From a virus, in the IMG/VR virus record IMGVR_UViG_3300045912_000261, positions 1 through 64,000 of that record: a stretch of DNA of 64,000 nucleotides. The stretch is one strand, 5' to 3'. The notes under the pieces were generated by a model that saw only the letters and a list, made by a program, of their open reading frames with translations, had not been told where the DNA came from and ran no database searches. A program made the translations under genes and the position numbers. Positions within the stretch are counted from its first letter, which is position 1. Every line of letters begins with the position of its first letter. Shown one piece after another: positions 3,897 through 44,517 of the stretch.

Positions 3897-6239
3897 TTGA
3901 TGGGTTCGACTTTGTCCGAGGAAGCCATCAGGGATCTCAGGGGAAGCGGCCTCAGAGATGAGCACATTGAGGCTATGCGTTGCCGCCCTGCTACGGTACA
4001 AGATCTTCCGTTCGCAGCCACAGGCTACGTCATCCCCTACTTCATTCCCACTGAGGAAGGGGAGTATGTTCGCCTCGAGGTTTCAGGTACTCCCTTCTCT
4101 CGGATCAAGATCCTCTCGCACCAGTCATCCGGGAACGGAATCCCCAAGTATTACCAGAGGGCTGCCACAGGTTCTCACGTCTACTTCCCTCCCCTCGTAG
4201 AGGCTGCCCGTTGGTGGGACACCAACGAGCCGCTCATCATCACTGAAGGGGAGAAGAAGGCGGCCTGTGCTACCGCACAAGGGTTTCTAACGTGTGCTGT
4301 AGGCGGAATCGACTCGTGGCGGTCTAAGAAGCTTATGGTGCCACCGGAGGCTGTCGTCGCAGGCGGAACGAAAGCCGTCCTGGTGGAACTTGATGACGAG
4401 GCGGAGCAGAAGATCGAGCTCCGTGCAGCAGACGAACTGACCTGGCTTCCCTTGGAGGGACGCCGGGTTTACGTATGCTTTGATTCCGATGGGCTGCAGA
4501 GTAAACGTAACCGAGTAGCCCGAGCTGCCTTTGACTTTGCCATCTGGCTCGAGACCCAAGGGGCCGACCCTAGACAGGTGGTCCTTCCTGCCGAGCCTGG
4601 AGAGAAAGTTGGGCTGGATGACTTCCTAGTCTCGGGGGGCAAGCTTGAACCCCTACTCAGCTCTGCCCGCTTCCCCACCAGACCCGGGCTCAAGATGTGG
4701 GCGCGCAAGCAGCTTGCCAACCCTAGGCGCACCCGCAACACAATGACCTCAGTGGCCCGAGGGATCCTAGCTGCCCTCGATGAACGAGGGACGCGCTTCC
4801 GGGACCCCTATGGCATGTACTACTACTTCGATAAGGCAACGGATAAGCTCCACCTGATGCCCATCGAAACAGGCCAGTCACTGCAGGTTGCAGCCCCAAG
4901 TTTTCACCAGCTATTGGTGCGTGAATACGGAGTGTCATCCGCGGACCGGGAGCTGGTACAGCGCCTGGTTGACGACTTCGAATCCCTGGAGCCTGTGCAG
5001 CAAGTAACGCGGGTACATAGGCAGTCGTACGCGGCTCCTGATGCGCTGTATTACCAGCTGTCCGACTCCCGTATGGCGAAGGTTACAGCTTCGGGCATCG
5101 AGGTACTACGTAACGGGACCGACAGGGTCCTGTTCCAAGTCGGGGCCGAGGAAGTAGAGCTGTACAACAAACAGCTGCCCCCAGGGTTTGGTTGGCTGTC
5201 CATGTTGAAGACTACGTCCCTTGAGCCCATTGGCACTCTGACGCTGGATGAAACCCACCTCCTGGTCGCTTGCCTGTTCTACCTCTCGCCGTGGCTCCGT
5301 CGCTGGAGAGGGCTCATGCTGCCTGCTGAGCTGGCTGTGTCTGAAGCAGGCTCGGGTAAAAGCTCGTTGTACCAGCTGCGTTCGGGGATCTTTACTGGGT
5401 CGGCACGTCTGCAGCATCAGCCCGAGGACATGAGATCTTGGTACTCTTCGATCGCGGACGCCCGCGGTCTGTGGGTAGCAGACAACATGGGCTCGAAGAT
5501 CGACGTCAGGATCAGCAACGAGATTGCCCGCCTGATTACGGACCCCGACCCTGCATTCGAACTGCGTGAGCTCTACACCACCTCCAAAGTACACCGCATG
5601 CCCGTAGACTGTGTCTTCGCCTTCACAGCCATCTACAACCCCTTCCACAGGCCGGACATCCTCCAGCGGTCGCTGCAGCTCCGCTTCCATGCCATCACCA
5701 AGAGAGACGGTGGCTGGATGTACAGGCAGATCGCAGATCAGGGCAGATCGATGTGGGTGACTCATCACCTGCAAACAATCTCTCGTTTCCTGGACAACGC
5801 AAAGGACATGGAGTGGGGAGTCAGTTCGAAGCATCGTCTCGTAGGCTTTGAGCAATCCCTACGCTGCATGGGTATAACGCTCGGTCGCAGGGCCGATATC
5901 GAACGGGTGATCCAAAAGTTGCCCGAGGCTGTTCAGGAGAGTATCACTGCTGACGAGCCTGTGATTGCAGCCCTACGTGCATTCGTCAAGGTTAAGCAGG
6001 GGCAGCGTAACAGACGAACGAACAAGATCTCCCTGGACGAGATCGTTGAGTGGGCACAGTACGCCACAGGGGAGAGGTACCAAGACCTGCGGGTACTCCG
6101 CAATCCCAGGCTGCTGGAGAAGTACATTCAGGCTCACGCTCACGATGTGTACAACACTACAGGGATCAGGGCCACGCCTGAAGAGTTCCGTGGGTACAGA
6201 TTGTTCGAGATCGACTTCAGCAAGGTGGCGGCCGTATGA
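3897..6239 (+). CDS. DNA primase-helicase (DUF3854-type Toprim primase plus P-loop helicase domain)
   Basis: LIITEGEKKA, VYVCFDSD, KVGLDDFL Toprim motifs; EAGSGKSS Walker A; WVADN Walker B-like. Confidence 0.8.
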   Translation: MMGSTLSEEAIRDLRGSGLRDEHIEAMRCRPATVQDLPFAATGYVIPYFIPTEEGEYVRLEVSGTPFSRIKILSHQSSGNGIPKYYQRAATGSHVYFPPLVEAARWWDTNEPLIITEGEKKAACATAQGFLTCAVGGIDSWRSKKLMVPPEAVVAGGTKAVLVELDDEAEQKIELRAADELTWLPLEGRRVYVCFDSDGLQSKRNRVARAAFDFAIWLETQGADPRQVVLPAEPGEKVGLDDFLVSGGKLEPLLSSARFPTRPGLKMWARKQLANPRRTRNTMTSVARGILAALDERGTRFRDPYGMYYYFDKATDKLHLMPIETGQSLQVAAPSFHQLLVREYGVSSADRELVQRLVDDFESLEPVQQVTRVHRQSYAAPDALYYQLSDSRMAKVTASGIEVLRNGTDRVLFQVGAEEVELYNKQLPPGFGWLSMLKTTSLEPIGTLTLDETHLLVACLFYLSPWLRRWRGLMLPAELAVSEAGSGKSSLYQLRSGIFTGSARLQHQPEDMRSWYSSIADARGLWVADNMGSKIDVRISNEIARLITDPDPAFELRELYTTSKVHRMPVDCVFAFTAIYNPFHRPDILQRSLQLRFHAITKRDGGWMYRQIADQGRSMWVTHHLQTISRFLDNAKDMEWGVSSKHRLVGFEQSLRCMGITLGRRADIERVIQKLPEAVQESITADEPVIAALRAFVKVKQGQRNRRTNKISLDEIVEWAQYATGERYQDLRVLRNPRLLEKYIQAHAHDVYNTTGIRATPEEFRGYRLFEIDFSKVAAV

Positions 6240-6373
6240 AACCCAGTAGACCAGCAACCAACCTCCTAGTTCTGGCCGACCCCTCTCCCGACCCCGAGTG
6301 GACTGTTCTCACAGTAGCCGTATCCGCCTCGGTCCTGCAGGAACTCCTCCAAGACCTTTGGGACTGGTTCTAG
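6236..6373 (+). CDS. DWF-tailed microprotein (45 aa)
   Basis: ATGA overlap with primase stop; MKPSRP...QDLWDWF*. Confidence 0.6.
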   Translation: MKPSRPATNLLVLADPSPDPEWTVLTVAVSASVLQELLQDLWDWF

Positions 6374-6374
6374 C

Positions 6375-6590
6375 ATGAACAGTTCTACGGCTACTACGGA
6401 CTCCGGGTGGATCTTGACGTTTCCTGCCGTAACCCTCAAGGGGGGAGAGACCCTCCTCCTTCAGTATACGTATACCTGGACCTGCTCAGCTGCATACTAT
6501 ACCTGGACCTGCTCAGCTACGCATACTCGGAGTGCACGGAGGGTTTCCCTAAGTGTCCCAGAAGCTCTCCGCGAAGGTAACTGGTTCTAG
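6375..6590 (+). CDS. NWF-tailed microprotein (71 aa)
   Basis: ATG 1 nt after previous stop; ends REGNWF*. Confidence 0.55.
   Translation: MNSSTATTDSGWILTFPAVTLKGGETLLLQYTYTWTCSAAYYTWTCSATHTRSARRVSLSVPEALREGNWF
6471..6518 (+). repeat. 21-bp direct repeat, period 27 (YTWTCSA twice)
   Basis: TATACCTGGACCTGCTCAGCT at 6471 and 6498. Confidence 0.85.
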
Positions 6591-6591
6591 T

Positions 6592-6780
6592 ATGTACTTG
6601 CACAGCAGCAGCACGGCATACTACATTTGGACTAAGCAGGGCTACGAGAAACTGGGCAGCGACCTCAATTGGGGTGTGGTAGTAATCCCGCACATTGCGC
6701 CTAGGCCAGCACAAACATCACGACGCAGGATCTCTTCTAGGGTTTGGTGGGTCCTGAAGATGAGCAAAGACTGGTTCTAA
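6592..6780 (+). CDS. DWF-tailed microprotein (62 aa)
   Basis: ATG 1 nt after previous stop; ends MSKDWF*. Confidence 0.55.
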   Translation: MYLHSSSTAYYIWTKQGYEKLGSDLNWGVVVIPHIAPRPAQTSRRRISSRVWWVLKMSKDWF

Positions 6781-6917
6781 TGGCTTCTGACACCCCTCCT
6801 TCAGAGCTTCCCGATATCTTCACCATGCCCTTTGAGGACTTCCTCAGGCTCTTTAAGGCGCTGGGAAGCTATGTCTACTGCACGATCGTGTTCGAGCCCC
6901 GCGACGACTGGTTCTAG
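6780..6917 (+). CDS. DWF-tailed microprotein (45 aa)
   Basis: TAATG overlap; MASDTPP...EPRDDWF*. Confidence 0.6.
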   Translation: MASDTPPSELPDIFTMPFEDFLRLFKALGSYVYCTIVFEPRDDWF

Positions 6918-6925
6918 GAGGAAAC

Positions 6926-7618
6926 ATGGAACGAGGTCTTGGACGTAAGGAGCCGACTGACTGGCGCCACGTCGAGAAGTACCGCTTCACACGTACGACA
7001 ACTTCGGTAGAGCGAACGATCCCCCTAGTCTGGTCCGCCAGGACCTTCTACGATCAGGGAACTGAGGGAGCCTGCGTTGGGTTCTCCTGTTCTTGGATGA
7101 TGACTCTGCTCAACCGCCGACGGTATGATGCCTTCTGGCTCTACCGCGAAGCTCAGAAGGTTGACGAGTGGCCTGGTGAGGACTACAGCGGTACATCACT
7201 GCGTGCTGGCCTGGACATTCTGCGAGAGGTGGGTCACCGCAGAGTAGCCTGGAAACGGACCTATCCGGCAGCTTTGGGCGAAGGAATCCACGAGAACCGA
7301 TGGGCGACTAGTGTGGATGAGATCCGCGGGGCGATTGCTGAGGGTACGCCTGTGGTGCTCGGGATCAACTGGTACTCGAGCTTTGATGTTCCCGCACGTC
7401 GGTGGCCCAGATGGTTCATTGGAGACAGACCCGATTGGGGTTGGGTTAGGGGAGGCCATGCTATTTGTTGTCGGGGTGCCTCTGACGCACTCCAGTCAGT
7501 GTTGCTCACAAACTCCTGGGGACGAGATTACCCCGCAGGAGTATGGTTGCCTTATGAGGGACTGGCACGCCTACTACGGGAAAATGGAGAGGCTGGGCTT
7601 GTCACTGACCGCCCGTAG
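6926..7618 (+). CDS. papain-like (C1) cysteine peptidase
   Basis: DQGTEGACVGFS (Cys), GGHAI (His), NSWG (Asn); RBS AGGAGG. Confidence 0.85.
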   Translation: MERGLGRKEPTDWRHVEKYRFTRTTTSVERTIPLVWSARTFYDQGTEGACVGFSCSWMMTLLNRRRYDAFWLYREAQKVDEWPGEDYSGTSLRAGLDILREVGHRRVAWKRTYPAALGEGIHENRWATSVDEIRGAIAEGTPVVLGINWYSSFDVPARRWPRWFIGDRPDWGWVRGGHAICCRGASDALQSVLLTNSWGRDYPAGVWLPYEGLARLLRENGEAGLVTDRP

Positions 7619-7673
7619 GCTGGCTGCCTTCCTCAACATTGCCTCACCCGAGTATAGGGATGACTGGTTCTAA
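7599..7673 (+). CDS. DWF-tailed micropeptide (24 aa)
   Basis: TTG start after GGAGAGG; MSLTARR...YRDDWF*. Confidence 0.45.
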   Translation: MSLTARRLAAFLNIASPEYRDDWF

Positions 7674-7786
7674 TGGTCAACTGTAAATTGGACCTTTTCG
7701 AGGCCCTACTCAAGCAGCTCTCCCGAGCCTCCGCGAACCCACGCACGAGAGCCATCATTCTGGTCTGCGAGGAAGACTGGTTCTAG
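7673..7786 (+). CDS. DWF-tailed microprotein (37 aa)
   Basis: TAATG overlap; MVNCKL...CEEDWF*. Confidence 0.55.
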   Translation: MVNCKLDLFEALLKQLSRASANPRTRAIILVCEEDWF

Positions 7787-7825
7787 GGCCTCAGTTGTAC
7801 ACCTATGAAGATTTTTTGATGCCCA

Positions 7826-7855
7826 TTGATTTCCCAAGTGGCTTTCTGCTATAAT
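7826..7855 (+). promoter_or_regulatory. sigma70-type promoter with extended -10
   Basis: TTGATT-18 nt-TATAAT, TG before -10. Confidence 0.8.
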
Positions 7856-7894
7856 ATTGTTGAAAGCTTGCAATCTGCTCCGTGAGGGGACCTA

Positions 7895-8170
7895 ATGAAC
7901 GAGAGGGAAGTAGACGAGCGCGACCACATCGCCAAAAGGCTGTACGAGGTTCTCGAGGCTGCCAAGGCAGAAATGTCAGAGGATGCCGAGATGAACAGCG
8001 TCGTGCTGAAGGGCATGATCGTGCTCTCAGAGTGGGAGGACTTCGGCAACGGCACCGAATGGATGCACGTGGTCACGGCAAAAGGGTCTGACGGCAACGA
8101 CTCGATGACTCCGTGGCAGGCGAAGGGACTCCTGCAGGAGGCGATCGACAAGATCAACAAGAGCTCGTAG
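7895..8170 (+). CDS. hypothetical protein
   Basis: GAGGGGG RBS, first gene after promoter. Confidence 0.6.
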   Translation: MNEREVDERDHIAKRLYEVLEAAKAEMSEDAEMNSVVLKGMIVLSEWEDFGNGTEWMHVVTAKGSDGNDSMTPWQAKGLLQEAIDKINKSS

Positions 8171-8172
8171 CC

Positions 8173-8961
8173 TTGGGTGATGAGCCTCTGAAGAGATGTA
8201 GCCGTGGGGACCATTGGGTCCCTATTTCTGGTTTCAATGCCGACTCGAAGGCTAAGGATGGCCTGCAGGGTAGCTGCAGGGAATGCCAGAAGGCTTACCA
8301 GAAAGAGTACTACGTCAAGACGAAGGAGAAGCGTCGGAGGTACCATCAAACACGACGCCGAAAGCTCCGTCGCGCAGAGGTAATGGCTAAGTGGCGAGCT
8401 GAGCACCCAGAAGCTGCCCGTACGCACCGAGCCACGCAGAGAGCCAAAGAGCTGGGCATTGAGGGAAGCTACACAGAGGCTGAGTGGATCGAGCTACAGG
8501 AGTACTACAACTACCACTGTCTGAGCTGCCTCCAGCAGTTCCCAGGGGATCTAGAAGCCGATCACGTACGTCCTCTTCAACAGGGTGGAACGAACACTAT
8601 CGACAACATCCAGCCTCTGTGTACTCCCTGCAACCGGAAGAAGGGTACCCGGTACGTCGACTTCCGCCCCCGATGGGAAGCGAGCAAGCACGTGGAGCAC
8701 GGGAGCAAAACTGTTGTCATACTCGACTATAACAGGCAGGTTGAAGCCTCCCACAGGTGGATCTCCCCCGACTTCGGACGGAGCCTCTCCTTACGAATCC
8801 CTGCAGAGATACTCAAGGACCCCCATCCACGAATCCGTGTTACTATCGAGCCGGTGGACGATCCCGATGACTCGGGAGCAGAAGAGGGCCCTGGACTTGC
8901 TGGACCAGCCCCCTCCGGAGATGTCCCGGACGGAGCTGGAGAACCTGGACCTGCTACCTAG
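8173..8961 (+). CDS. HNH endonuclease
   Basis: N-terminal KRC...F..D...KDGLQGSCREC; CxxC...DHVRPL..GG.N.IDNIQPLCxxCNxxKG; TTG start assumed. Confidence 0.85.
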   Translation: MGDEPLKRCSRGDHWVPISGFNADSKAKDGLQGSCRECQKAYQKEYYVKTKEKRRRYHQTRRRKLRRAEVMAKWRAEHPEAARTHRATQRAKELGIEGSYTEAEWIELQEYYNYHCLSCLQQFPGDLEADHVRPLQQGGTNTIDNIQPLCTPCNRKKGTRYVDFRPRWEASKHVEHGSKTVVILDYNRQVEASHRWISPDFGRSLSLRIPAEILKDPHPRIRVTIEPVDDPDDSGAEEGPGLAGPAPSGDVPDGAGEPGPAT

Positions 8962-9343
8962 GCGTTTCTGGGCCTCTGACGGGTACAATAATGGCCTCTA
9001 CAACTTTTGGGAGCCTCTCTGTAAGCCTCCATACAAGTGGAGCCCGTACGCCTTCGCCCTCTGTGGGCAGCTCGCATACGAAACTTTCGCCACAAGAATT
9101 GGCTCAGGGCTCTACGCATTCACGGCGTACGAGCTGCTGGGCTGTATTAGGCAGGCAGCGAGCTGCGGCTTTGCTTGCTGCCGGGTGCCCCACCCGAACG
9201 ACACTCTAGCCTACCTCGTGGGTGTACACTACTTAGTGGAATGCAACTTGCTGACCGGAGTGACTCCAGCCTCCTGGAGGCGAGCGGACCACTCCCTAAG
9301 AGATGGCTGCCGGTATGTGTTCAGGATCGATGACTGGTTTTAA
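8867..9343 (+). CDS. DWF-tailed hypothetical protein (158 aa)
   Basis: MTREQKR...FRIDDWF*; start uncertain. Confidence 0.55.
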   Translation: MTREQKRALDLLDQPPPEMSRTELENLDLLPRRFWASDGYNNGLYNFWEPLCKPPYKWSPYAFALCGQLAYETFATRIGSGLYAFTAYELLGCIRQAASCGFACCRVPHPNDTLAYLVGVHYLVECNLLTGVTPASWRRADHSLRDGCRYVFRIDDWF

Positions 9344-9485
9344 GTACGCCCCTGAGTTCGTACTGGGTGGCTTCATGGGTATGCTTTGGTATACTTGCAA
9401 CCTTCCAGGCCTCCTCGTCCTAGGCGTCCTCCTGCTGCTCGTTGCGGTCCTCCTTATCTGTAGGGAGCTAGCTGGTGACCTCTAG
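9330..9485 (+). CDS. small membrane protein starting inside the DWF motif
   Basis: ATG ACT GGT TTT (MTGF) overlaps GAT GAC TGG TTT TAA; hydrophobic. Confidence 0.5.
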   Translation: MTGFKYAPEFVLGGFMGMLWYTCNLPGLLVLGVLLLLVAVLLICRELAGDL

Positions 9486-9714
9486 CACAGAACGCCTCGC
9501 CTCCATCATCCTCGCGGGTGGGGTGATCCTGCTTCTGGGACTTCTCCTGGAGTTCGTTCCAGACCCGTTCGTCCTCTACCCCCTGCTCGGAGCCTTTGCA
9601 GGCAGCCTCGCCTGGAGGGCAGTCGCCTCGGTGCACCGTGCAGGCCGTAAGGTAGGCTCCCTCAAGAAGATGCTCGTCTTCCAGCAGATCAGGGACTCCA
9701 ATGATTGGTTCTGA
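9475..9714 (+). CDS. DWF-tailed membrane protein (79 aa)
   Basis: two hydrophobic segments; ends DSNDWF*. Confidence 0.6.
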   Translation: MTSSTERLASIILAGGVILLLGLLLEFVPDPFVLYPLLGAFAGSLAWRAVASVHRAGRKVGSLKKMLVFQQIRDSNDWF

Positions 9715-9989
9715 TGGCTAGGTGTTGTCCCACGGGAGTGGGCTGCAACAACCCTTACGGACACCAGCCCTGCCTACTGGAGTGTGCGAAGGCCTGCCCC
9801 AATGAATCTCTTGCCATCCGCGTTCTCTATTGGTGGTGGCGGTGGAACACTCTGCCTTGGAGACGTCTAAGGGAGCGAGACAAGGCAAAGCTCATGTATC
9901 AGGACACCTTGGCAATGGCCCTACGCAGGCGGGACCTGATGTACTACGGCGTAGGACGCATCTACGAGGATGGCCGTGACTGGTTCTGA
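9714..9989 (+). CDS. DWF-tailed Cys-rich microprotein (91 aa)
   Basis: TGATG overlap; ends DGRDWF*. Confidence 0.55.
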   Translation: MARCCPTGVGCNNPYGHQPCLLECAKACPNESLAIRVLYWWWRWNTLPWRRLRERDKAKLMYQDTLAMALRRRDLMYYGVGRIYEDGRDWF

Positions 9990-12988: not shown

Positions 12989-13603
12989 ATGCCTGCTCCA
13001 TTGCAAGGACTGCGTGGCGTGTTCCTCCCTGTGGTTGACAACATCTGTACCAAGGAGACCGTAGCCTTCGCGAGAGTAGACGCCGGTGATGCTGAAGCTG
13101 CAGCACGACATCTTTGGATCTGGCAGGGTGAAGGAAGCTACCCAGCTCGCCCTGATGGAGCCAAACTTCCTCATTGCGTGCTGGGAGTTTCCCCTTCCAC
13201 CCCAGTTGAGCCGCGCAACCGAAACTTCCTGGACTGCCGTAGGTTCAATCTGCGAACCAAGCCAGCTCGCAACAAGGTCGCGGACCGCATCCGCAGCAGA
13301 TTTCGAGGAGTCCTCAGAGACCCCCATCCGCCCGACAGCCTTCGTCCCTGGCTGGCTTACGGAAGAACACCAGAAGGAGGCCTTGCACGCCTGGGCTACT
13401 TCCGAAGAGAGGAAGAGGCAGCCACCCGAGCTAGGGAGTGGGAAAGAGCTTATCAGTCAATACACCTGGAGGACGACTGGCAGGGCGGAGGTTTCGGAAG
13501 ACACTTGGGTTCTCCCAAGTCATCCTCCAGGCACGTTAACGCTGGCCCCGGAAAGTTCATCGACCGGGAGGGTCCTGAACTGGAAGCTTGGGACTGGTTC
13601 TAG
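12989..13603 (+). CDS. degenerate HNH-AP2 protein with DWF tail
   Basis: FARVD..D...W, VEPRNRNFLDCRRFNLR (HNH DH dyad replaced by EP), SRFRGV...W.AY...LGYF..EEEAA (AP2); ends EAWDWF*. Confidence 0.65.
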   Translation: MPAPLQGLRGVFLPVVDNICTKETVAFARVDAGDAEAAARHLWIWQGEGSYPARPDGAKLPHCVLGVSPSTPVEPRNRNFLDCRRFNLRTKPARNKVADRIRSRFRGVLRDPHPPDSLRPWLAYGRTPEGGLARLGYFRREEEAATRAREWERAYQSIHLEDDWQGGGFGRHLGSPKSSSRHVNAGPGKFIDREGPELEAWDWF

Positions 13604-13689
13604 GAGACTATGGCTTCCAAAGCCCCCACCAAAGTGGAGGGTGGCACTGATAGTGGCCCAGCCTCTTTGCGACCTCAGACTCCTAGGAG

Positions 13690-13908
13690 ATGACTGGTTC
13701 TAGATACACCCCCGAGAAGTACTGCGTAGACATCGACTCCAGAACCAACGGTCACGGCGTCACGTACTCCATCTGGATCTACCCCTACGACCCTGAAGAT
13801 GCCACACCTCTACCCCTTCGCCCTAGTAGGCAGATCTGCACAAGGCATTTCCTCGCTCTTCACGTGGTCGAGGCAGTCGTCAGGGGACACAGTGGAGACT
13901 GGTTCTGA
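13690..13908 (+). CDS. MTGS...DWF microprotein (72 aa)
   Basis: ATG inside upstream DWF motif; ends HSGDWF*. Confidence 0.6.
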   Translation: MTGSRYTPEKYCVDIDSRTNGHGVTYSIWIYPYDPEDATPLPLRPSRQICTRHFLALHVVEAVVRGHSGDWF

Positions 13909-14086
13909 GCTTCCAAAGTGTCACGTTGAGCTTCTCGAAGGCCCAGGACACGTTTACAAGATATGGGAGACGAGACAACTAGCTTCAGGCAGAACCCGCT
14001 GGACCGAGCTCGCCGTCTTGCGACCGCCCTTCTTCTTGGATCCCTACAGAGTTTTCGAGATGGCAAACTCCTATGACTGGTTCTAA
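13892..14086 (+). CDS. METGS...DWF microprotein (64 aa)
   Basis: GTG start reading through upstream motif; ends NSYDWF*. Confidence 0.55.
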   Translation: METGSELPKCHVELLEGPGHVYKIWETRQLASGRTRWTELAVLRPPFFLDPYRVFEMANSYDWF

Positions 14087-14237
14087 CATCGTGGGCGTGA
14101 GCTACTCGGGGAGGACACCTTGTGGCGGATTCTCATACACAGTGTTCCGAGAGACAGGCAAGCTTACTCTTACCCTCAGGCACCGACCGCAATCTCATGT
14201 CGTAGCAATCGCCCTTAGCTCTGATGACTGGTTCTGA
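14073..14237 (+). CDS. MTGS...DWF microprotein (54 aa)
   Basis: ATG inside upstream motif; ends SSDDWF*. Confidence 0.6.
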   Translation: MTGSNIVGVSYSGRTPCGGFSYTVFRETGKLTLTLRHRPQSHVVAIALSSDDWF

Positions 14238-14391
14238 GGGCTTTCTAGGGGTAGACTCCCTTTTACTCCAGGGGCCGAAGGGTTTCACGTACGTTGCCTA
14301 CTACGCGACCCACAGCACTAAGTACGTCATTAGCAGGCCCCTGAGCTCCTGGGTCCTGGATCACCTCCACCGCTCCGATGACTGGTTCTGA
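14224..14391 (+). CDS. MTGS...DWF microprotein (55 aa)
   Basis: ATG inside upstream motif; ends RSDDWF*. Confidence 0.6.
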   Translation: MTGSEGFLGVDSLLLQGPKGFTYVAYYATHSTKYVISRPLSSWVLDHLHRSDDWF

Positions 14392-14545
14392 CGCCTTCTG
14401 GCTCATCCTGTTCTTCTTCTGTCTTGGTGGGGTGCTTCTCCTCGCCATCTGGCTGGTCATGCAGTTCTGGTGGCTCATCCTGGGGTTCGTTGGGCTCGTG
14501 ATCCTCTGGGAAGCTATTGTCCTTAACGGAGAGGAGCCTTGGTAG
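14378..14545 (+). CDS. MTGS-starting membrane microprotein (55 aa)
   Basis: ATG inside DWF motif; very hydrophobic; ends EEPW*. Confidence 0.55.
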   Translation: MTGSDAFWLILFFFCLGGVLLLAIWLVMQFWWLILGFVGLVILWEAIVLNGEEPW

Positions 14546-14794
14546 GTGGGTCTTTTCTTCTACAGCCCTAGGGGCATTAGGGCAGCGGCTAGCAACGCAG
14601 CCGTGGAAATAGGCATCTACGGCGAGTACGGCTTGGGGGACCTGAACCTGATCATCCGCTACCAGAAGAACCTTAGGAGGGTTCGGGAGAGTCCAGAAGA
14701 TGTGGCTGCTAAGCTAACCGCCGACCAGCTTATTGCCAAGCATAGCGACCGCTGGGGCAACCGAGCCGTAGGGTCCATCCGCCCTAAGCTATAA
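14546..14794 (+). CDS. hypothetical protein
   Basis: abuts previous stop. Confidence 0.45.
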   Translation: MGLFFYSPRGIRAAASNAAVEIGIYGEYGLGDLNLIIRYQKNLRRVRESPEDVAAKLTADQLIAKHSDRWGNRAVGSIRPKL

Positions 14795-14795
14795 C

Positions 14796-14842
14796 GGCAG
14801 GACAGGGTGCCGAGTCGGCTAGGACTAGGCGCCCGAATCGAC
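14796..14842 (+). repeat. GGTGCC(C)G dispersed repeat, 2 units
   Basis: GGCAGGACAGGGTGCCGAGTCGGC, TAGGACTAGGCGCCCGAATCGAC. Confidence 0.7.
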
Positions 14843-14976
14843 TAAGTGTTCATTCGAGGAACGGAGCCACTATGAAGGTCAATCGTTCCGTCAAGAGCCG
14901 AATGTAAGGCTCCTGACGGGATAAGACACGCAGTACATCCCGTCCAGGAGCGAAATGCTTCTGACGGGAGGAGTAC

Positions 14977-15222
14977 TTGGCCAAGAACAAGGGCGGGGGT
15001 GGCTCCGTCCACAAGGCCAAGCCTACGTACCAGCACAACATTGCACGCTCGGTACGTAACAAGGCTAAAGGGAAGTACGTGAAGCAGCGCGCACGCACGG
15101 AAGCGAATAAGCTCCGTCGGGCATATCGCTTCATCGCCATGGTGCAGGATAGCCGCCGTCGAAAGGGCAAGCTACCTTTCGATCCCAGCGTCGTCCTGCA
15201 GAAGTGGCAGCAGGACGACTAG
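14977..15222 (+). CDS. small highly basic protein
   Basis: GGAGGAG RBS; K/R-rich. Confidence 0.6.
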   Translation: MAKNKGGGGSVHKAKPTYQHNIARSVRNKAKGKYVKQRARTEANKLRRAYRFIAMVQDSRRRKGKLPFDPSVVLQKWQQDD

Positions 15223-15424
15223 CAGTGGGGTGTCGCCACAGGTCTGCAGTAGTAGGTAGCTTCTACGAACTGGCCTCGTGTGTAAAAGACCCGGCTAAGC
15301 GGGCGCGGCACCCATACGACCGTAAGGTGTCTCCGGAAGCGGAGGCCAAACAGGATCCGACTCTCACACGGATCCGACATAGGCAGGTAGTCCAAAACGC
15401 GATACCGGGGGACTGCCTGCCCTC

Positions 15425-15498
15425 GGCAGTGTAGCCCAATTGGTAGAGGCGACGGATTCAAGATCCGGAGGTTGGAGGTTCGACTCCTCCCACTGCCA
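15425..15498 (+). tRNA. tRNA-Leu(CAA), short variable arm, no encoded CCA
   Basis: acceptor GGCAGTG/CACTGCC, D-arm GCC...TGGTAGAGGC, anticodon loop TTCAAGA, T-arm GGAGG-TTCGACT-CCTCC. Confidence 0.85.
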
Positions 15499-15690
15499 TG
15501 CAAGGCCTCCCTGGTTGGGATAGCTTTTTGGGTGTCATAGGCTGTCTGTCAATCCCCTCTGGACGCAGAAGGTGACACAGACTAAGCCCAAGAGGCTCGG
15601 GGTTCGATCCCCTGAGGGCCACTGCGGGGTGTCGGTCAAGACAGGGCACTCGCGATAGGCACCCCGCAACACTACGACGAAGGAGGACAG

Positions 15691-16221
15691 TTGCCGTGGC
15701 GAGCCACAACAACGGGGGAGCACACCGTAAGAACACGTCCCCTGGGCGCGCTATCCAAGGATTACTCGCGCTTGCCCTCCTCGCCGTGGCAGCTGCCATC
15801 CTCGCGTACGTGGGAGGAATTGTGGCAGCCTTCGCGGTCACGTTATTCGAAGCCGGCTGGTCGACTATCCGATAGTGACAGACGCTGGCTTCGCAGGACC
15901 CTTGTGGACCTAGTTACCCCACCTGAGCTGACCGGCATTGTCCATGTCCTCCAGGACCCTCTTGACTACGTTCTAACGAGTCTTCTCTTGGACGCATGTC
16001 AGGAGAGGGAGCTCAGATTCAAGCTCAAGTTTGCTACCAGCCCCGCAGGCTTCTACTATACGCCTCACCCTCGTGCAGTCATTACTCCCAGGGGGTGGCA
16101 CGATAGGGAACTACGGAAGCTGTTCCTGCTGATTCGGAGGGCCCAAACTCGTATACACACAAGGATCCTCCTGAAGGCCTTGTTCCCGCCGGTGACAGCC
16201 GGGAGGCATGACTGGTTTTAG
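15691..16221 (+). CDS. DWF-tailed hypothetical protein; true start probably downstream (a separate membrane ORF 15696-15875 overlaps the 5' part)
   Basis: ends AGRHDWF*. Confidence 0.5.
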   Translation: MPWRATTTGEHTVRTRPLGALSKDYSRLPSSPWQLPSSRTWEELWQPSRSRYSKPAGRLSDSDRRWLRRTLVDLVTPPELTGIVHVLQDPLDYVLTSLLLDACQERELRFKLKFATSPAGFYYTPHPRAVITPRGWHDRELRKLFLLIRRAQTRIHTRILLKALFPPVTAGRHDWF

Positions 16222-16359
16222 GTGGTGGAGTGCCGGAGAATGGGTTACTTCGGATCGACACCGAGAGGACCCGGGTTCGAATCCCGGCCGCTCCACTAGG
16301 GGCGGTAGCTCAGTGGTAGAGCGCTACGTACCCACTCGTTAACGCCTCCACCACCTAAA
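16217..16359 (+). ncRNA. YrlA-type Y RNA with circularly permuted tRNA-like domain
   Basis: 14-bp terminal stem TTTAGGTGGTGGAG/CTCCACCACCTAAA; GTGCCGG...GGGTTACTTC...GTTAACGC motif; T-arm CCGGG-TTCGAAT-CCCGG, then acceptor stem closed by a short loop, then D-arm GCTC-AGTGGTA-GAGC; near Ro60 gene. Confidence 0.8.
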
Positions 16360-36931: not shown

Positions 36932-37691
36932 GGGCCAGTTTGCCCCTGTAGGGAGCCTTACGCACTACAGGTTCCTTGAGGAACAAGGTGTCTTAGGGGA
37001 CTACCACCTCCTGCTAGCCCACAAGGTGCTGGAGGACCCTGATGGCTGGATCGATCTCTACAGACGCATCAGGGAACAGGGAAGAGAGCCCTTCGTGATC
37101 ATGGACAACTCCTTGATCGAGCTGGGCCGTCCCCTTCAGGCACCCGCACTGGCTGAAGCCTCCCGGATCGTAGATGCCTCGTGCCTCGTGCTTGCTGACG
37201 TGCTTTCTAACCGCCGAGCTACCGTCGAGCTCTCGGTGGCCATGCACTACGAGCTGCGGAAGATGAAGGAGGTCCCTCCCTTCCTTGCGGTGGTCCAGGG
37301 AGCCTCGTACGAGGATGCGCTACTTTGCGCAGAGGAACTAGCCTCCTTGGAAGGTGTGCGCTACCTCTCGATACCCAGAGTCGTAGCGGACACCATGGGG
37401 ACTCGGAAGCACCTGGTCAAAGAGGTCTACCGTAGGCATCAGCTCCCGATTCACCTCCTAGGCTTCTCTGAAGACATGGCAGATGACATCATGTGCACTA
37501 GTCTACCGGGGGTCATGGGGATCGACTCAGCTGTCCCCCTCCGGATGGGGCTCGCTGGAGTAGCCTGGGGCCCCCATCGGAAGACACCACCCCGACCGAA
37601 GAACTTCCTCGACAGCAAGGATGTTAATGTCCTCATGGTCGAAAACACAGTGGAAGTACGTAAGGCCATCGGACCCCAGGAAGCTACCTAA
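36921..37691 (+). CDS. TGT-fold protein, candidate DpdA-like DNA 7-deazaguanine transglycosylase
   Basis: VIMDNS, LAVVQG, PIHLLG, GIDS motifs match the TGT barrel layout; next to que/folE genes. Confidence 0.65.
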   Translation: MCPRGQFAPVGSLTHYRFLEEQGVLGDYHLLLAHKVLEDPDGWIDLYRRIREQGREPFVIMDNSLIELGRPLQAPALAEASRIVDASCLVLADVLSNRRATVELSVAMHYELRKMKEVPPFLAVVQGASYEDALLCAEELASLEGVRYLSIPRVVADTMGTRKHLVKEVYRRHQLPIHLLGFSEDMADDIMCTSLPGVMGIDSAVPLRMGLAGVAWGPHRKTPPRPKNFLDSKDVNVLMVENTVEVRKAIGPQEAT

Positions 37692-37833
37692 GCACGACCC
37701 CGAGAAAGCTGTCAATCGACAAGCTGCCATATTTCTGGCGTCGTCAGTCCCAGCAAAACGGAGGTTGAGGGTCCATATCTACACCAAAGGGGCGCACCCC
37801 AGACTCCGGAGCGTTCTCGAGGACTGGTTCTAG
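37621..37833 (+). CDS. DWF-tailed microprotein, start uncertain
   Basis: ends SVLEDWF*. Confidence 0.5.
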   Translation: MLMSSWSKTQWKYVRPSDPRKLPKHDPEKAVNRQAAIFLASSVPAKRRLRVHIYTKGAHPRLRSVLEDWF

Positions 37834-38000
37834 TGCGCTGCGAACTAGAAAGAGCGGCGGCGGAGCATGTTCGCTTCCTTCTAGGGATGAGCTCTGCTGA
37901 CAGGCGGGAAGCCTTCGGACGCCTCCAACACCTAGAGTACGCAGCGCGGCTCCGCTCTGAGTACGCCCTTCTCTGGTTCGAGCTTACGGACTGGTTCTAG
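37833..38000 (+). CDS. DWF-tailed microprotein (55 aa)
   Basis: TAGTG overlap; ends ELTDWF*. Confidence 0.6.
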   Translation: MRCELERAAAEHVRFLLGMSSADRREAFGRLQHLEYAARLRSEYALLWFELTDWF

Positions 38001-38131
38001 TGGTAGGCGAGCCTTTGCAGTGGCTTATGAAGTATGTCCTGACCAGAGAGGTCTCGCTGCCTTCGGCCTCGTGGCTTCTTAGCCCCCGTAAGAAGCGCCA
38101 GCTGCTCGGGTACCTCAATGACTGGTTCTAG
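38000..38131 (+). CDS. DWF-tailed microprotein (43 aa)
   Basis: TAGTG overlap; ends YLNDWF*. Confidence 0.65.
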   Translation: MVGEPLQWLMKYVLTREVSLPSASWLLSPRKKRQLLGYLNDWF

Positions 38132-38262
38132 TGTATCTGAACTTGGTACAGTGGCTGCTGCAGAGAGTTCTCGGGAGGGAGATTAGCTTGCACTCAGCCT
38201 TCTACCTCCTTAGCGCTGTCGAGTCAGCTGACCTTCGATCCAGTCTCGAGGACTGGTTTTGA
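38131..38262 (+). CDS. DWF-tailed microprotein (43 aa), paralogue of previous
   Basis: TAGTG overlap; shared QWL...VL.RE.SL.SA..LLS; ends SLEDWF*. Confidence 0.65.
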   Translation: MYLNLVQWLLQRVLGREISLHSAFYLLSAVESADLRSSLEDWF

Positions 38263-38417
38263 TACAGGTAGAAAGTCCAGCCCAGAGCTGGATGAGAGTG
38301 CTTTTAAGTCCTGAGTACTACTCTCTGTGGTGGAGGATGCACAAGTACGAAGCCTTCAAGAGGGGCTGCGAACCTTACGGATGGGCAGTCGTCTGCGAGA
38401 TGCATGACTGGTTCTAG
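38259..38417 (+). CDS. DWF-tailed microprotein (52 aa)
   Basis: TTGA overlap; ends EMHDWF*. Confidence 0.6.
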   Translation: MIQVESPAQSWMRVLLSPEYYSLWWRMHKYEAFKRGCEPYGWAVVCEMHDWF

Positions 38418-38595
38418 CTTGTTGGCCCTAACAGAGCCTGAATCAACTCAGGAGTGGGTATTCCTACTCTTGGGTACGCAGTACCCCTCGTGGTGGCGCG
38501 TGAATCGCTTCTACAGTTTCGCTGGCCTCGCAGTACTAGGGTCCCCCGACGGGCTGGCGGCCACGGTCGTGAGGGAGATCCAGGACTGGTTCTGA
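38404..38595 (+). CDS. MTGS...DWF microprotein (63 aa)
   Basis: ATG inside motif (or TTG 38419); ends EIQDWF*. Confidence 0.6.
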   Translation: MTGSSLLALTEPESTQEWVFLLLGTQYPSWWRVNRFYSFAGLAVLGSPDGLAATVVREIQDWF

Positions 38596-38756
38596 TGCCG
38601 GATCCCGATCCAGTACAGTGTTGGGTGCGCCTTCTCCTGATGACCGATATCCACGCCGATTGGCGAAAGGCTCAACACCACAACTTCAAAGCTCGCGCGG
38701 AGCTAGGAGGGTGGCACGAGATCGCCATCGTGGTAGCTCTCGCGGACTGGTTCTAG
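38595..38756 (+). CDS. DWF-tailed microprotein (53 aa)
   Basis: TGATG overlap; ends ALADWF*. Confidence 0.6.
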   Translation: MPDPDPVQCWVRLLLMTDIHADWRKAQHHNFKARAELGGWHEIAIVVALADWF

Positions 38757-38932
38757 TGCCTATAGGCTCTCGAGCAGGCTATCGCCGCAGTCTGGAGTGG
38801 CACACCTCGTATCGAGCCAGCAGGATTCTCCGAGAAAAATCCGTCCGAAAGCATGAACTCGAGCTGGTGGAGAAGGTTGCGAACCCGGACTACCGCAGGG
38901 CGGTAAGAGAACATCTGGCTGACTGGTTTTAG
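38756..38932 (+). CDS. DWF-tailed microprotein (58 aa)
   Basis: TAGTG overlap; ends HLADWF*; stop overlaps polymerase start. Confidence 0.6.
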   Translation: MPIGSRAGYRRSLEWHTSYRASRILREKSVRKHELELVEKVANPDYRRAVREHLADWF

Positions 38933-41475
38933 TGGCTACTCAAAGTCCTTCCGTGGCAGGGGGCCAATGCGCCAACTGCCCTTTCACGAGCCAGGCCGTA
39001 GTACGGCCCGATCTTCGTCGTGCTCCTCTGCTGATAGTCGGAGAGGCTCCTGGCGCGCAAGAGGTGCGCACGGGAGTTCCCTTTGTAGGTCCCTCAGGCC
39101 AGCTGCTCTGGCAGACGTTCAAGCGTCTTGGCATCGAGCGCGGCCAGGTCGCTGTAACGAATGCACTTCTTTGCTCGGTTCCTCCCTCCATGAGCAAGTC
39201 GGGAGGAGCCCTCCGTCAAGCTTGCCTAGCTTGCCGTAGCCGCCTCCTGGCAGACGTCGAGCTCGTGGACCCCAAGGTTATTCTTGCCTTGGGCAATACG
39301 GCTATGCAGTCCCTGCTGGCCAAGTTCTCGCTCAAGATCACGCAAGAGCGGGGCAAGGCAATTGAGTTCGACGGACGATGGATCATCCCCGCACTACATC
39401 CTGCCGCTGTACTTCGCAACCCTGGTGACTTCAAGCGACTTGCTGCCGACCTTTCCTACGCGGTCAGCCTTTCCAACGGAGGCCGCCCCAAGGATCCGGG
39501 TGAGACACGTTACCAAGTTGTTCGGACGGAAGAGGATCTGATCAAGGCCTGCAGGGTCCTCAAGAAGCACCGCACTCTAGCAGCAGACATCGAGACCTCG
39601 GACGTCAACCCCCGCAAGCACTGGATTCAGTACTTGGGCATCTGCTGGGAGAAGAACAAGGTAGCCATCTTCCCTCCCCGAGTACGGGTAGGACATGGTG
39701 CCCGTAATGACAGGTCGGTAAGCTCCGGTGCCGAGTCGACGGTAAGCTCCGGTGCAGGCGACGACGGGGTGCCTGTGGCCGAGTTGTACAGGAGTACTTG
39801 GACCCATCCAGACTTCAAGGCTCTCTTCGAGGACCCAGCGATCACTTGGGTGTGGCATAACGGCAAGTTCGACACCAGCTTCCTGCAGCAGGTAGGCCTG
39901 CCCGCCCGCACGGATGAGGACACGATGCTGCTCCATTACCTTTTGGACGAGGTGCGGGGGACGCACGACCTCAAGCAGCTGGCATCGGATCTCCTGGGGG
40001 CAGAAGACTACGACGCCATCGTCAAGAAGTATGCGGGCAAGGGCGAGAACGGTTGGGCAAAGATTCCGCCGCACATCCTTGTCCCCTACCTCGCTAGGGA
40101 CGCTGACTACACCTTCCAGATCTTCCCCATCCTTCGGGAGAGGGTCCGGAAGATCCCTGATCTGGAAGAGCTGTACACGACCCTGATCATTCCTGCCAGC
40201 CATTTTCTGCAGAGGGTCGAGAGGGCCGGGATGTGGGTCTCCTTCGAGCATCTGGAGAAGGTGGCTGCGGCTCTGGCCCAGGAGAAGGATGAAGTCGAGA
40301 CCCGAATCCAGGAGATTGCGGAGCAGTACTGGGACCCCGATGAGTACGCCAAGGCCACGGACTCCAAGTCCATTCCGCTAGAGTTCAACCCCGCATCGCC
40401 CCGGCAGGTAAGCTGGCTCATCTACAGCCGCCTCCGACTCCGCGTCCCCGGGAGGGCTGGGATCAGAGACACCAGAGAGGAAACCCTCCGGGAGCTTCCG
40501 CCGCACCCCCTGGTGACGAACCTGCTCAAGCTGCGGAAGATCAACAAGCAGCTTCAGACGTACGTTGAGGGCATCCTACGAGAGGTGGAGGCGGATGGGA
40601 GAGTTCACTCTACCTATCTCATTCACGGAACGTCTACCGGACGGCTCAGTTCTCGTAACCCTAACGCTCAAAATATCCCACGGGACCCACTTATCCGGGA
40701 TATCTTTCAAGCTCCTCCCGGCAAAATCCTGGTTGAGGCCGATTTTGATCAGGCAGAGCTTCGAATGCTCGCCCACCTATCGCGCGATGAAGAGCTGCTC
40801 CGCATCTACCGCGAAGGCCGCAAGCTCCATGATGAGGTTGCTGCAGACCTCTACGGCCCCAACTACACCGAAGAGCAACGGATGCGAGCCAAGGCAGTGA
40901 ACTTCGGGATCGTCTACGGACGGACGGAGTTCTCTCTGATGCACGAGTTCAAGATTGGCTTGCCGGAAGCCCAGCGGATGGTGCACGACTGGTTTGCAAG
41001 GTTCCCCCAAGCCAAGAGGTACATTGATGCCTGCCGGAACGCTCCGTTGCAGGGTAAACAGCTTGTGAGCCCCTTTGGTCGTCGTAGACGCTTTCCATTC
41101 GTGCCCGAAGCGTCCCGCAAAGAGATCCAGAACGAAAGCGCCAACTTTGCCATCCAGTCAGGAGCCAGCGATCTCACGCTGCTGACAGCCATGACGGCTG
41201 AACCCGAGCTGGACAGGATTGACGCCAAGATTGTGAACCTCGTTCACGACTCCATCCTCGTTGAGTGTCCTGAGAACCAGGCGATCACCGAGAAGGTGCT
41301 CCAGGTCTTGCAGGAGGCATCTGCGCGGGTGGTCAAGCATCGCCTCAAGGGGATTCTCGAGTTCCCAATGGACGCGAAGGTTGGTCGGGGGTGGGGGACC
41401 GCCATGAAAGGAGATGGTTGGTGGGAGTACAAGGCCAAAATGGGGGATCTCGAGCGCGCTCTCGGCCCCCAGTAG
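38932..41475 (+). CDS. polA: family A DNA polymerase with N-terminal uracil-DNA-glycosylase-like domain and 3'-5' exonuclease
   Basis: IVGEAPG..E..G.PFVG.SG and HPAAVLR (family-4 UDG); DIET, HNGKFD, Y...D (exo); TGRLSS, ADFDQAELR, AKAVNFGIVYG, VHDS. Confidence 0.93.
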   Translation: MATQSPSVAGGQCANCPFTSQAVVRPDLRRAPLLIVGEAPGAQEVRTGVPFVGPSGQLLWQTFKRLGIERGQVAVTNALLCSVPPSMSKSGGALRQACLACRSRLLADVELVDPKVILALGNTAMQSLLAKFSLKITQERGKAIEFDGRWIIPALHPAAVLRNPGDFKRLAADLSYAVSLSNGGRPKDPGETRYQVVRTEEDLIKACRVLKKHRTLAADIETSDVNPRKHWIQYLGICWEKNKVAIFPPRVRVGHGARNDRSVSSGAESTVSSGAGDDGVPVAELYRSTWTHPDFKALFEDPAITWVWHNGKFDTSFLQQVGLPARTDEDTMLLHYLLDEVRGTHDLKQLASDLLGAEDYDAIVKKYAGKGENGWAKIPPHILVPYLARDADYTFQIFPILRERVRKIPDLEELYTTLIIPASHFLQRVERAGMWVSFEHLEKVAAALAQEKDEVETRIQEIAEQYWDPDEYAKATDSKSIPLEFNPASPRQVSWLIYSRLRLRVPGRAGIRDTREETLRELPPHPLVTNLLKLRKINKQLQTYVEGILREVEADGRVHSTYLIHGTSTGRLSSRNPNAQNIPRDPLIRDIFQAPPGKILVEADFDQAELRMLAHLSRDEELLRIYREGRKLHDEVAADLYGPNYTEEQRMRAKAVNFGIVYGRTEFSLMHEFKIGLPEAQRMVHDWFARFPQAKRYIDACRNAPLQGKQLVSPFGRRRRFPFVPEASRKEIQNESANFAIQSGASDLTLLTAMTAEPELDRIDAKIVNLVHDSILVECPENQAITEKVLQVLQEASARVVKHRLKGILEFPMDAKVGRGWGTAMKGDGWWEYKAKMGDLERALGPQ
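39687..39758 (+). repeat. GGTGCC(C)G dispersed repeat, 3 units in frame within the polymerase
   Basis: GGTAGGACATGGTGCCCGTAATGAC, GGTAAGCTCCGGTGCCGAGTCGAC, GGTAAGCTCCGGTGCAGG. Confidence 0.75.
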
Positions 41476-42460: not shown

Positions 42461-42552
42461 CTCACCGCTTCAGAGTACATCCTACCAGGAGGGTGCTCAT
42501 TCTCTGTGGGCATGGGTATAGAAGCCCCATTGTCGTGGAGCGTGAAAGCAGG

Positions 42553-42903
42553 ATGATCGAAGCCCTCTCCCTCGAGCCCGCTAAGAACTGTCTCAGTGGC
42601 ATCTTCCCCCTCGACTACGAGGATGACATTGCCCTCATGAGGGCAGTGCGAGACCTCCTTTTCAGCGAGCAGTACGAGGCAGGAAACCCCGAATACATCA
42701 AGCCCAGGGGGGAGGGAGTAGTAGAGAGGATCAACTTCCTCTTCCGGGGCTTTGACGGGGACACTCTGCGGGCGTTCAACTTCACTCTCAGCCACAGAAG
42801 ACCTCATGTCGGCAGCTACGACTCTGGAACGCACAACCTCGCTGCCCGCTCGATGGGCTTCACGGTCCATCACTACCTAACCGAGTGGCTCGACTGGTTC
42901 TAA
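42553..42903 (+). CDS. DWF-tailed hypothetical protein (116 aa)
   Basis: ends EWLDWF*. Confidence 0.55.
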   Translation: MIEALSLEPAKNCLSGIFPLDYEDDIALMRAVRDLLFSEQYEAGNPEYIKPRGEGVVERINFLFRGFDGDTLRAFNFTLSHRRPHVGSYDSGTHNLAARSMGFTVHHYLTEWLDWF

Positions 42904-44012: not shown

Positions 44013-44429
44013 GTGGGAAAGAGGGTAACTGGGATCTGCCACAACTGTGGCGACCTCGCAAGTGGGCCGCGATCGTTCTACTGCGACGAATGCAGGCCGA
44101 TAGTCCGCAGGGCCCAGAGGATGGGCCAACCCAGTGCAAGGAGGCGTAGGAAGCGGCCGGACCATGTCTGCGTCTCCTGCCGCGAGAGACTTGCCAGGTC
44201 CAGTAGGGCTCTTTACTGTGAGCCTTGCTACATCAAGGTCAAACTCGAGTCCAAGAAGGCTTTTTACCTTGAGAGGCAGAAGCGCACCCGTGAGAACGCC
44301 CATACGGTCCTCAACTACGTTATCAACGAACTTATCCGCCTTCGAGAAGAGGGTGACTATGGTTCACCGCAGCTCACGCGCTTGGCCAAGATCCTTGAGC
44401 AGATCCGCATCCGCCCAGAAGGTGCCTGA
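44013..44429 (+). CDS. zinc-finger hypothetical protein
   Basis: four CxxC pairs. Confidence 0.5.
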   Translation: MGKRVTGICHNCGDLASGPRSFYCDECRPIVRRAQRMGQPSARRRRKRPDHVCVSCRERLARSSRALYCEPCYIKVKLESKKAFYLERQKRTRENAHTVLNYVINELIRLREEGDYGSPQLTRLAKILEQIRIRPEGA

Positions 44430-44517
44430 CCCGACTGCCGTTCTAGCTGCCTTCGCAGCCACTATGAAGAAGCTGAACGTACAAGTTCACATCATCACCA
44501 GTAGGGACTGGTTCTGA
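44422..44517 (+). CDS. DWF-tailed micropeptide (31 aa)
   Basis: GTG 44422; ends TSRDWF*; TGATG overlap with dNMP kinase. Confidence 0.5.
   Translation: MPDPTAVLAAFAATMKKLNVQVHIITSRDWF

Follow-up and report, generated by a model that had tools for sequence, protein, structure and literature searches.

The stretch analysed here, termed the window, corresponds to positions 1–64,000 of an IMG/VR virus record of 112,533 bp (IMGVR_UViG_3300045912_000261; completeness estimate ~90%), and the whole analysis concerns this single uncultured phage genome. On its + strand, eight successive open reading frames (ORFs) at 37621–38932 run directly into the gene of a PolA-type DNA polymerase, and every one of them ends in GACTGGTTC/T followed by a stop codon (GACTGGTTY, corresponding to a C-terminal Asp-Trp-Phe, DWF-COOH). 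The same end, with an occasional Asn in place of Asp, recurs on further proteins encoded by this phage. We lean, with moderate confidence, towards the explanation that DWF is a phage-private C-terminal address tag carried by real, translationally coupled microproteins, which were amplified by tandem duplication and are separated by a junction word at their boundaries.

DWF ends across the genome

A search for the nine-base motif with at most one mismatch yielded 26 matches in the window, all of them on the + strand, compared with 1.9 ± 1.3 in shuffled sequences, and each match supplied the final three codons of its ORF. DWF terminated 25 of the 460 + strand stop-to-stop ORFs of at least 40 codons and none of the 494 on the – strand; a single internal DWF was present in the window, within PolA. 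The whole record contained 28 [DN]WF ends (25 DWF and three NWF), again exclusively on the + strand. The frequency of the tag is far above chance. Most ends were grouped in three clusters at 6.2–10.0 kb (nine; array 1), 13.0–16.2 kb (seven; array 2) and 37.6–38.9 kb (eight, the array ahead of polA), and single ends were found at 42.9, 44.5, 106.6 and 111.9 kb (motif positions 42892, 44506, 106648 and 111910). Roughly 80% of the small early ORFs called carried the tag. Most proteins of a recognisable family lacked it, the exceptions being an AP2-like protein and an NWF-ended cREC_REC protein, and the bearers varied widely, including a 37-amino-acid (aa) peptide and a predicted membrane protein (9475–9714) besides these two. 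In a codon model derived from 23 long genes, the tagged frame scored best in 28/28 cases, and the GC content at third codon positions (GC3) of the 28 ORFs was typical of the genome. Judged by these measures, the tagged microgenes are coding.

The array ahead of polA

The motif copies of the eight-gene array are located at 37822, 37989, 38120, 38251, 38406, 38584, 38745 and 38921. Five junctions have the form TAGTG (37833, 38000, 38131, 38756 and 38932, the last being the PolA start), one is a TGATG (38595) and one consists of a TTG start at 38259 within TTTTGA; the 38404 gene starts with ATGACTGGTTCT (MTGS), its ATG lying two bases ahead of the motif. No Shine-Dalgarno sequence of at least 5 nucleotides (nt) was present ahead of the starts at the TAGTG, TGATG, TTTTGA and ATGACTGG junctions. 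The genes are joined by stop/start overlaps, from which translational coupling is predicted. Promoter-like or terminator-like signals between 35 and 45.5 kb did not rise above shuffled expectation, and the array is therefore placed within an operon.

The first gene (37621..37833, 70 aa from ATG 37621, ending ..VLEDWF) is a singleton whose start is uncertain. Its candidate ATG codons at 37621 and 37627 overlap by 65–71 nt the conserved 3′ end of a DpdA-like gene of the 7-deazaguanine module (36921..37691, +), for which tblastn matches in 29 related loci showed homology up to residue 247–251 of 256, and the sole alternative start is TTG 37765. A second singleton follows (37833..38000, 55 aa, ..ELTDWF), with a GTG that overlaps the preceding TAG. 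The next two genes encode 43-aa members of paralogue family A, at 38000..38131 (..YLNDWF; an identical protein is present in a public collection) and 38131..38262 (..SLEDWF, with TTT as the Phe codon and TGA as the stop). Family B comprises a 52-aa protein (38259..38417) starting from a TTG within the preceding GGTTTTGA, the 63-aa MTGS protein (38404..38595), whose start sequence is read in the +1 frame of the preceding DWF motif, and a 53-aa protein (38595..38756) entered through the TGATG junction. The TTG at 38259 is needed as a start because the family-conserved Q.W precedes the next ATG (38292). The last gene, again a singleton (38756..38932, 58 aa, ..HLADWF), ends with a TAG that overlaps the GTG of the UDG-like/PolA DNA polymerase gene (38932..41475); like the array genes, the polymerase is encoded on the + strand. 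No Shine-Dalgarno sequence lies ahead of this GTG, which we regard as the true start because homology to relatives begins at residue 10–12.

The original prediction, made from the sequence alone, had described eight ORFs of 43–70 aa, joined by these overlaps and ending on the GTG of polA, and all of this was confirmed, the start of the first ORF being uncertain. It had also held the ligase and deoxynucleoside monophosphate (dNMP) kinase genes to be coupled to DWF stops. This applies to the kinase, which is joined by a TGATG (44517); the ligase is coupled through a start (GTG 9976 or ATG 9970) that overlaps the upstream motif and not through a TGATG-type junction.

Two families of tandem duplicates

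Paralogy was assessed after removal of the start residue and the DWF tail, with z values derived from shuffles. The 38000 and 38131 proteins aligned without gaps at 47% identity (z = 12.1) and the members of the 38259/38404/38595 trio at 38–39% identity (z = 9.8–12.1), and 0/100 shuffles matched the scores of the family A and B pairs. The two tandem-duplicated paralogue families, as originally proposed, are real. Among all 351 tail-less pairs only these four were clearly related, the remaining 347 having z ≤ 4.4. A superfamily uniting both families was considered and rejected, since hhalign aligned only the six tail columns of family A with family B. The claim that DWF alone is invariant thus holds across the families, and fails within them, where many other residues are conserved. 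At the DNA level, 38000 and 38131 are 50% identical, with a saturated proportion of synonymous differences (pS 0.79) and a proportion of nonsynonymous differences (pN) of 0.43, and we therefore regard them as old duplicates under protein-level constraint. The ratio of nonsynonymous to synonymous rates (dN/dS) is not estimable for this pair because synonymous sites are saturated, and the fast divergence postulated earlier cannot be shown. The more general picture of a constant tail on variable bodies matches what the data look like.

Insertion at the DpdA–PolA junction

About 25 related contigs keep the gene order SNF2, nuclease, AAA_24, QueC, QueE, FolE, DpdA-like, PolA. In those relatives the gap between the DpdA-like gene and PolA measures ~0–200 nt, whereas the present phage has 1.24 kb of DWF microgenes there. 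Because the DpdA-like gene directly abuts PolA in ~25 relatives, the comparison of gene order identifies the array as a lineage-specific insertion at an otherwise conserved junction. The conserved module from SNF2 to PolA (19024–41475 here, QueD included) occupies ~10 kb in ~25 relatives and ~20 kb in the present phage, stretched by lineage-specific inserts. The array illustrates how accessory genes may be threaded into a conserved, coupled DpdA–PolA junction with the chain left unbroken.

PolA shared at most 34% identity with the closest isolated phages and at most 46% with the closest metagenomic contigs (IMG/VR, JGI metagenomes), and no PolA relatives were found in GTDB genomes. The tagged genes gave no tblastn match in 44 related loci, and no C-terminal tripeptide was enriched among the related loci from IMG/VR and JGI metagenomes. 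Apart from the AP2-like and cREC_REC proteins, the tagged proteins belonged to no Pfam or PHROG family. Word-index searches of 5.8 billion clustered proteins and a search of the ESM Atlas returned no homologues, and a profile of the trio run against 1.84 billion representatives retrieved only the three proteins themselves. Relatives sharing the tag system were also sought by paired-motif scans (IMG/VR at three spacings, GTDB genomes), which returned only repeat proteins in other frames; these false matches were T-G-S-type repeats with TGG in place of the stop.

Probable peptide-level constraint

All three stops follow the motif (TAG 13, TAA 5, TGA 8), and Asn takes the place of Asp in three ends. 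The TTC:TTT ratio of 22:4 did not differ significantly from the genome-wide 90% TTC before T-starting codons, and the GAC:GAT ratio of 24:1 was close to the 83% GAC found in that context (p = 0.06). A pure DNA-motif reading, first prompted by the near-invariant GAC and TTC, was rejected as codon context explains most of this bias. No conservation of sequence or structure was detected in the DNA flanking the nine bases. The residues ahead of the tail showed a pattern of their own, with hydrophobic side chains at positions –8 (21/28), –7 (18/28) and –4 and acidic ones at –5 and –3, and an amphipathic helix is therefore indicated. The cREC_REC (cyclic-phosphate processing receiver) domain protein (record positions 106324–106659, +) ends in ..ERYAP followed by RHIWNWF, and a WF end was present in 0/119 homologues; an NWF tail added to a protein whose homologues lack it supports selection at the peptide level. 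Taken together, the constraint looks peptide-level from the sequence data.

AlphaFold2, run on the three-member alignment of family B, predicted for the 38404 protein a three-helix bundle (pLDDT 86, pTM 0.70) whose third and last helix terminates in DWF. A Foldseek search of this model against the PDB and BFVD gave no match with E below 1. The single-sequence model of a 116-aa tagged protein was unusable (pLDDT 43).

Proposed explanation

According to the explanation we favour, accessory microgenes would have been inserted into the conserved DpdA–PolA junction and partly amplified in tandem. The tag, [DN]-W-F-COOH, would usually form the final turn of an amphipathic acidic helix, with the extended form [LIM]-x-D-W-F in the polA-adjacent array, and its bearers are ~26–28 mostly unrelated early proteins. 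In the most likely mechanism, a single shared partner would recognise the aromatic C-terminus with its free carboxylate, either for docking to a hub or for delivery to a protease; this partner would handle all tagged proteins alike, and each variable body would act differently. At the gene boundaries, a 12–14 nt junction word RTGACTGGTTYTRR would close one gene and open the next, and its direct repetition between all cassettes would favour their duplication and loss in register. A second, DNA-level layer at this word is likely, and the word probably aids in-register duplication.

That a reader of the tag exists is inferred, as are its identity and any anti-defence role of the bearers. The arms-race role and the hub put forward in the original prediction are pure inference. 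We consider it doubtful that the phage runs a complete address-label system of its own, in which DWF would plug ~26 interchangeable microproteins into one reader (the peptidase described below, a host protease or a replisome hub), the bodies would serve as adaptors for host targets such as defence proteins or as an early set destroyed on cue, and the boundary word would be the cassette joint.

One candidate reader is encoded within array 1. The ORF at 6926..7618 (+, 230 aa), directly preceded by a DWF stop and a strong Shine-Dalgarno sequence, specifies a papain-like (C1-type) cysteine peptidase that matched phrog_16701 (E = 2e-23) and the cysteine protease PDB 3ois (E = 3e-8). It contains the QG..GaC, GGHA and NSWG motifs with the Cys, His and Asn residues expected of C1 peptidases; the Pfam family Peptidase_C1 was not reached at E ≤ 0.01. 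Phages of Streptomyces, Mycobacterium and Gordonia encode homologues, a weak hint at an actinobacterial host. A host hub or a host protease is likewise a candidate.

Several observations weigh against the tag explanation. First, the GAC excess marginally exceeds codon-context expectation, as the 24:1 ratio in the motif contrasts with 23:8 genome-wide before TGG (p = 0.03). Second, 11/25 motifs are overlapped by an RTG codon (ATG or GTG) at –2, against 12% expected (p = 7e-5), pointing to some constraint at the nucleic-acid level; six or seven of these RTG codons open real ORFs beginning with (M/V)TGS, the ligase among them. Third, the copy at 13692 closes at best an ORF of 16–20 codons and supplies the ATG of the next gene. 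Fourth, the tail is helical, and not free and disordered, in the only confident model. Fifth, scanning the phage proteins with Pfam and PHROGs revealed no PDZ, TPR, clamp, single-stranded DNA-binding protein (SSB) or AAA+ unfoldase. Sixth, Streptomyces phage BillNye has the peptidase and no end-tag in a 40-kb stretch with 70 coding sequences, so that the link between peptidase and tag is only positional. Finally, the case for selection on the tail is built on a single genome.

Alternative explanations

The first three of these observations are also what an RNA-level explanation would draw on, according to which GACUGGUUCU plus stop forms an RNA junction signal, acting as a termination–reinitiation or coupling element or as the operator of a RegA-like repressor or a processing nuclease, with DWF as a by-product of the upstream frame. 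In line with this proposal, 20/26 motifs lie within ~13 nt of the next start and most such starts, that of PolA included, lack a Shine-Dalgarno sequence, to which the –2 RTG codons, the slight over-use of GAC and the 13692 copy can be added. We nevertheless consider it unlikely. The next start shifts relative to the motif between –5 and +20 (+11, +13, –2, –5, +8 or +18/+20), no start adjoins the motifs at 9332 and 42892, and a tRNA-like gene begins at 16222, directly past the stop at 16221. The use of all three stops is equally unexpected for such a signal, as is the tolerance, at about codon-context rates, of G to A (NWF) and of C to T in both GAT and TTT. Beyond the nine bases nothing is conserved in sequence or structure, the upstream residues follow an amino-acid and not a nucleotide periodicity, and the NWF tail of the cREC_REC protein sits far from any array.

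It is similarly improbable, in our judgement, that the motif is only the trace of a historical cassette boundary, that is, one ancestral 3′ end from which all tagged genes descend, or beside which they were captured, and whose 9–14 nt word served as a microhomology joint for duplication and shuffling, like the boundary sequences of hyperplastic regions, and whose peptide has no reader. The arrangement of the genes in arrays, the tandem paralogues and a junction word that both closes and opens genes all speak for such a history. So do the extended tails, which are array-specific and fit local duplication: [LIM] occupies position –4 in 8/8 ends of the polA-adjacent array against 4/20 elsewhere (p = 1.6e-4), and Ser at –4 is typical of array 2 (p = 1.7e-3). 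The motif is intact, however, in paralogues that are saturated at synonymous sites and in which an unselected 9-nt word would have decayed. Moreover, the word is absent from the – strand, from other reading frames and from the DNA between genes, and the four isolated tagged genes lie outside the arrays.

An intrinsic structural or self-association element, that is, a C-terminal helix cap or a Trp/Phe knob for mutual oligomerisation of the microproteins, would agree with the amphipathic pattern and with the confident placement of DWF in the last helix of the AlphaFold2 bundle, and is very unlikely in view of the identical three residues on proteins of very unlike size and type and of a cREC_REC fold that is complete in 119 homologues without the tail.

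Comparison with known systems

Short C-terminal labels, such as the peroxisomal targeting signal PTS1, degrons, clamp tails and the tripeptide of the cytosolic iron–sulfur protein assembly (CIA) system, are an established principle. A full-text literature search turned up neither a DWF tag nor any account of end-tags spread over a phage proteome, and a virus that marks roughly one quarter of its early proteins, almost exclusively ORFans, with a single invariant tripeptide would be new in the literature searched. If a single reader exists, one pull-down could provide a functional handle on 26 uncharacterised proteins, and the tag could serve as a portable targeting signal.

The closest phage precedent is found in T4, where the C-terminal tails of gp43, gp33 and gp55 bind the sliding clamp gp45 (PMC2988020). 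As in these clamp tails, a short acidic and hydrophobic interchangeable motif stands at the extreme C-terminus of unrelated phage proteins, and the T4 motif docks onto one hub. In contrast to T4, with its three clients of known function and the hub gp45, the present phage has ~26 ORFans, a DWF sequence, no recognised clamp gene and a PolA-type polymerase. Clamp-binding peptides commonly follow the consensus QL[SD]LF or form a (S/T)LDFL-type tail. DWF was rejected as a β-clamp- or gp45-binding motif, as [LIM]-x-D-W-F has no Gln at the expected position and the phage genes include no recognised clamp; a host clamp is a conceivable partner.

Clients of the CIA targeting complex are marked by the tripeptide [LIM]-[DES]-[WF]-COO–, which is necessary and sufficient (PMC10245660). 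In both signals an acid, an aromatic side chain and the free carboxylate come together, and that of CIA marks diverse clients for one machine; unlike the eukaryotic CIA system, which delivers Fe–S clusters, the clients here would be phage microproteins. An assignment to the CIA targeting signal was rejected, as D/N-W-F fails the pattern [LIM]-[DES]-[WF]: it opens with D or N where L, I or M is required, its acid and its aromatic residue each being displaced by one place.

Bacterial AAA+ proteases read C-degrons such as the ssrA-type LAA and, in the case of Streptococcus mutans ClpX, the tripeptides AAL, ETV and VTL (PMC10782952, PMC8138137). In these degrons, as proposed for DWF, three C-terminal residues form a transferable signal for one machine, and a degron would account for the tagging of transient early proteins. 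The known C-degrons are mostly aliphatic and none of them is DWF, and the phage encodes a papain-like peptidase and no recognised unfoldase.

In a replication setting, the acidic tails of SSB and T7 gp2.5 end in a C-terminal Phe that inserts both its side chain and its carboxylate into pockets of partner proteins, and bacterial SSB tips have the form D-x-P-F on the long disordered linker of an OB-fold protein. The DWF ends share with these tails the acidic residues ahead of a terminal Phe and the replication-module setting, and differ from SSB in that Trp replaces Pro, the tail is helical in the model and the bearers are not SSBs. As a side observation, the annotated SSB of BillNye (5130–5870) has an acidic tail, ..DDNDEW, closed by an aromatic residue. 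PDZ class III ligands have the form [DE]-x-hydrophobic-COOH. By inspection D-W-F fits this pattern; no PDZ domain was found in the phage proteins scanned.

In their arrangement, the microgenes resemble phage hyperplastic regions, arrays of small, fast-changing early genes coupled by ATGA or TGATG overlaps: lineage-specific ORFan microgenes lie between core replication genes, are amplified in tandem and are chained by stop/start overlaps. We know of no hyperplastic array with an invariant C-terminal tripeptide or with a fixed junction word that codes for both an end and an MTGS start.

Other tagged loci and genomic context

Array 1 (6236..9989, +, nine [DN]WF ends) lies between a DUF3854 primase-like gene and the ATP-dependent ligase gene. 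A possible unannotated ORF of 51 codons (9330–9485, +), with an MTGF start in the DWF motif at 9332, would bridge the gap to the tagged gene at 9475. Array 2 (12989..16221, +, seven DWF ends) includes the AP2-like protein of 204 aa and four MTGS-type junctions, and its last stop adjoins a tRNA-like gene. Two overlapping ORFs of ~205 codons in different frames on the + strand (12989–13603 and 13086–13703) both end in DWF; the frame-2 product resembles an AP2-type DNA-binding protein, and codon scores separate the frames unclearly. A Shine-Dalgarno sequence of its own precedes a 27-codon ORF (13610–13693, +) that spans two DWF junctions and whose end overlaps, as ATGA, the MTGS start at 13690. 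Two tagged genes downstream of polA stand alone on the + strand, an ORFan of 116–136 aa (42493..42903) and an ORF at 44305..44517, joined by an overlap of its TGA with the ATG that opens the dNMP kinase gene (44517–45182).

Pfam and PHROG annotation of the window proteins assigned the + strand between 2 and 45 kb to a replication and nucleotide-metabolism module. It comprises the DUF3854 primase-like protein, HNH endonucleases, the ATP-dependent ligase, a Ro60/TROVE-vWA protein, an SNF2 helicase, a PD-(D/E)XK nuclease, an AAA_24 protein, a sigma factor, a dUTPase, the dNMP kinase and the UDG-PolA fusion. Its 7-deazaguanine genes encode QueC, QueD, QueE-like, FolE and DpdA-like proteins, the QueE-like gene being common to the relatives and without a Pfam match in the present phage. 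From 46 kb on, the – strand encodes structural proteins of the myovirus type, baseplate J and Mu gp48 among them.

A tRNA-Leu(CAA) gene (15425–15498, +) was called by both ARAGORN and Rfam, and a tRNA-Ser(CGA)-like gene (16222–16296, +), starting one base past a DWF stop, by ARAGORN only. The Ro60/TROVE-vWA gene (17420–18982, +) lies downstream of both, and Y-RNA-like partners may be close by. One of the lineage-specific inserts in the module from SNF2 to PolA, an HNH_3 endonuclease gene (29319–29936, +), adjoins the queE region.

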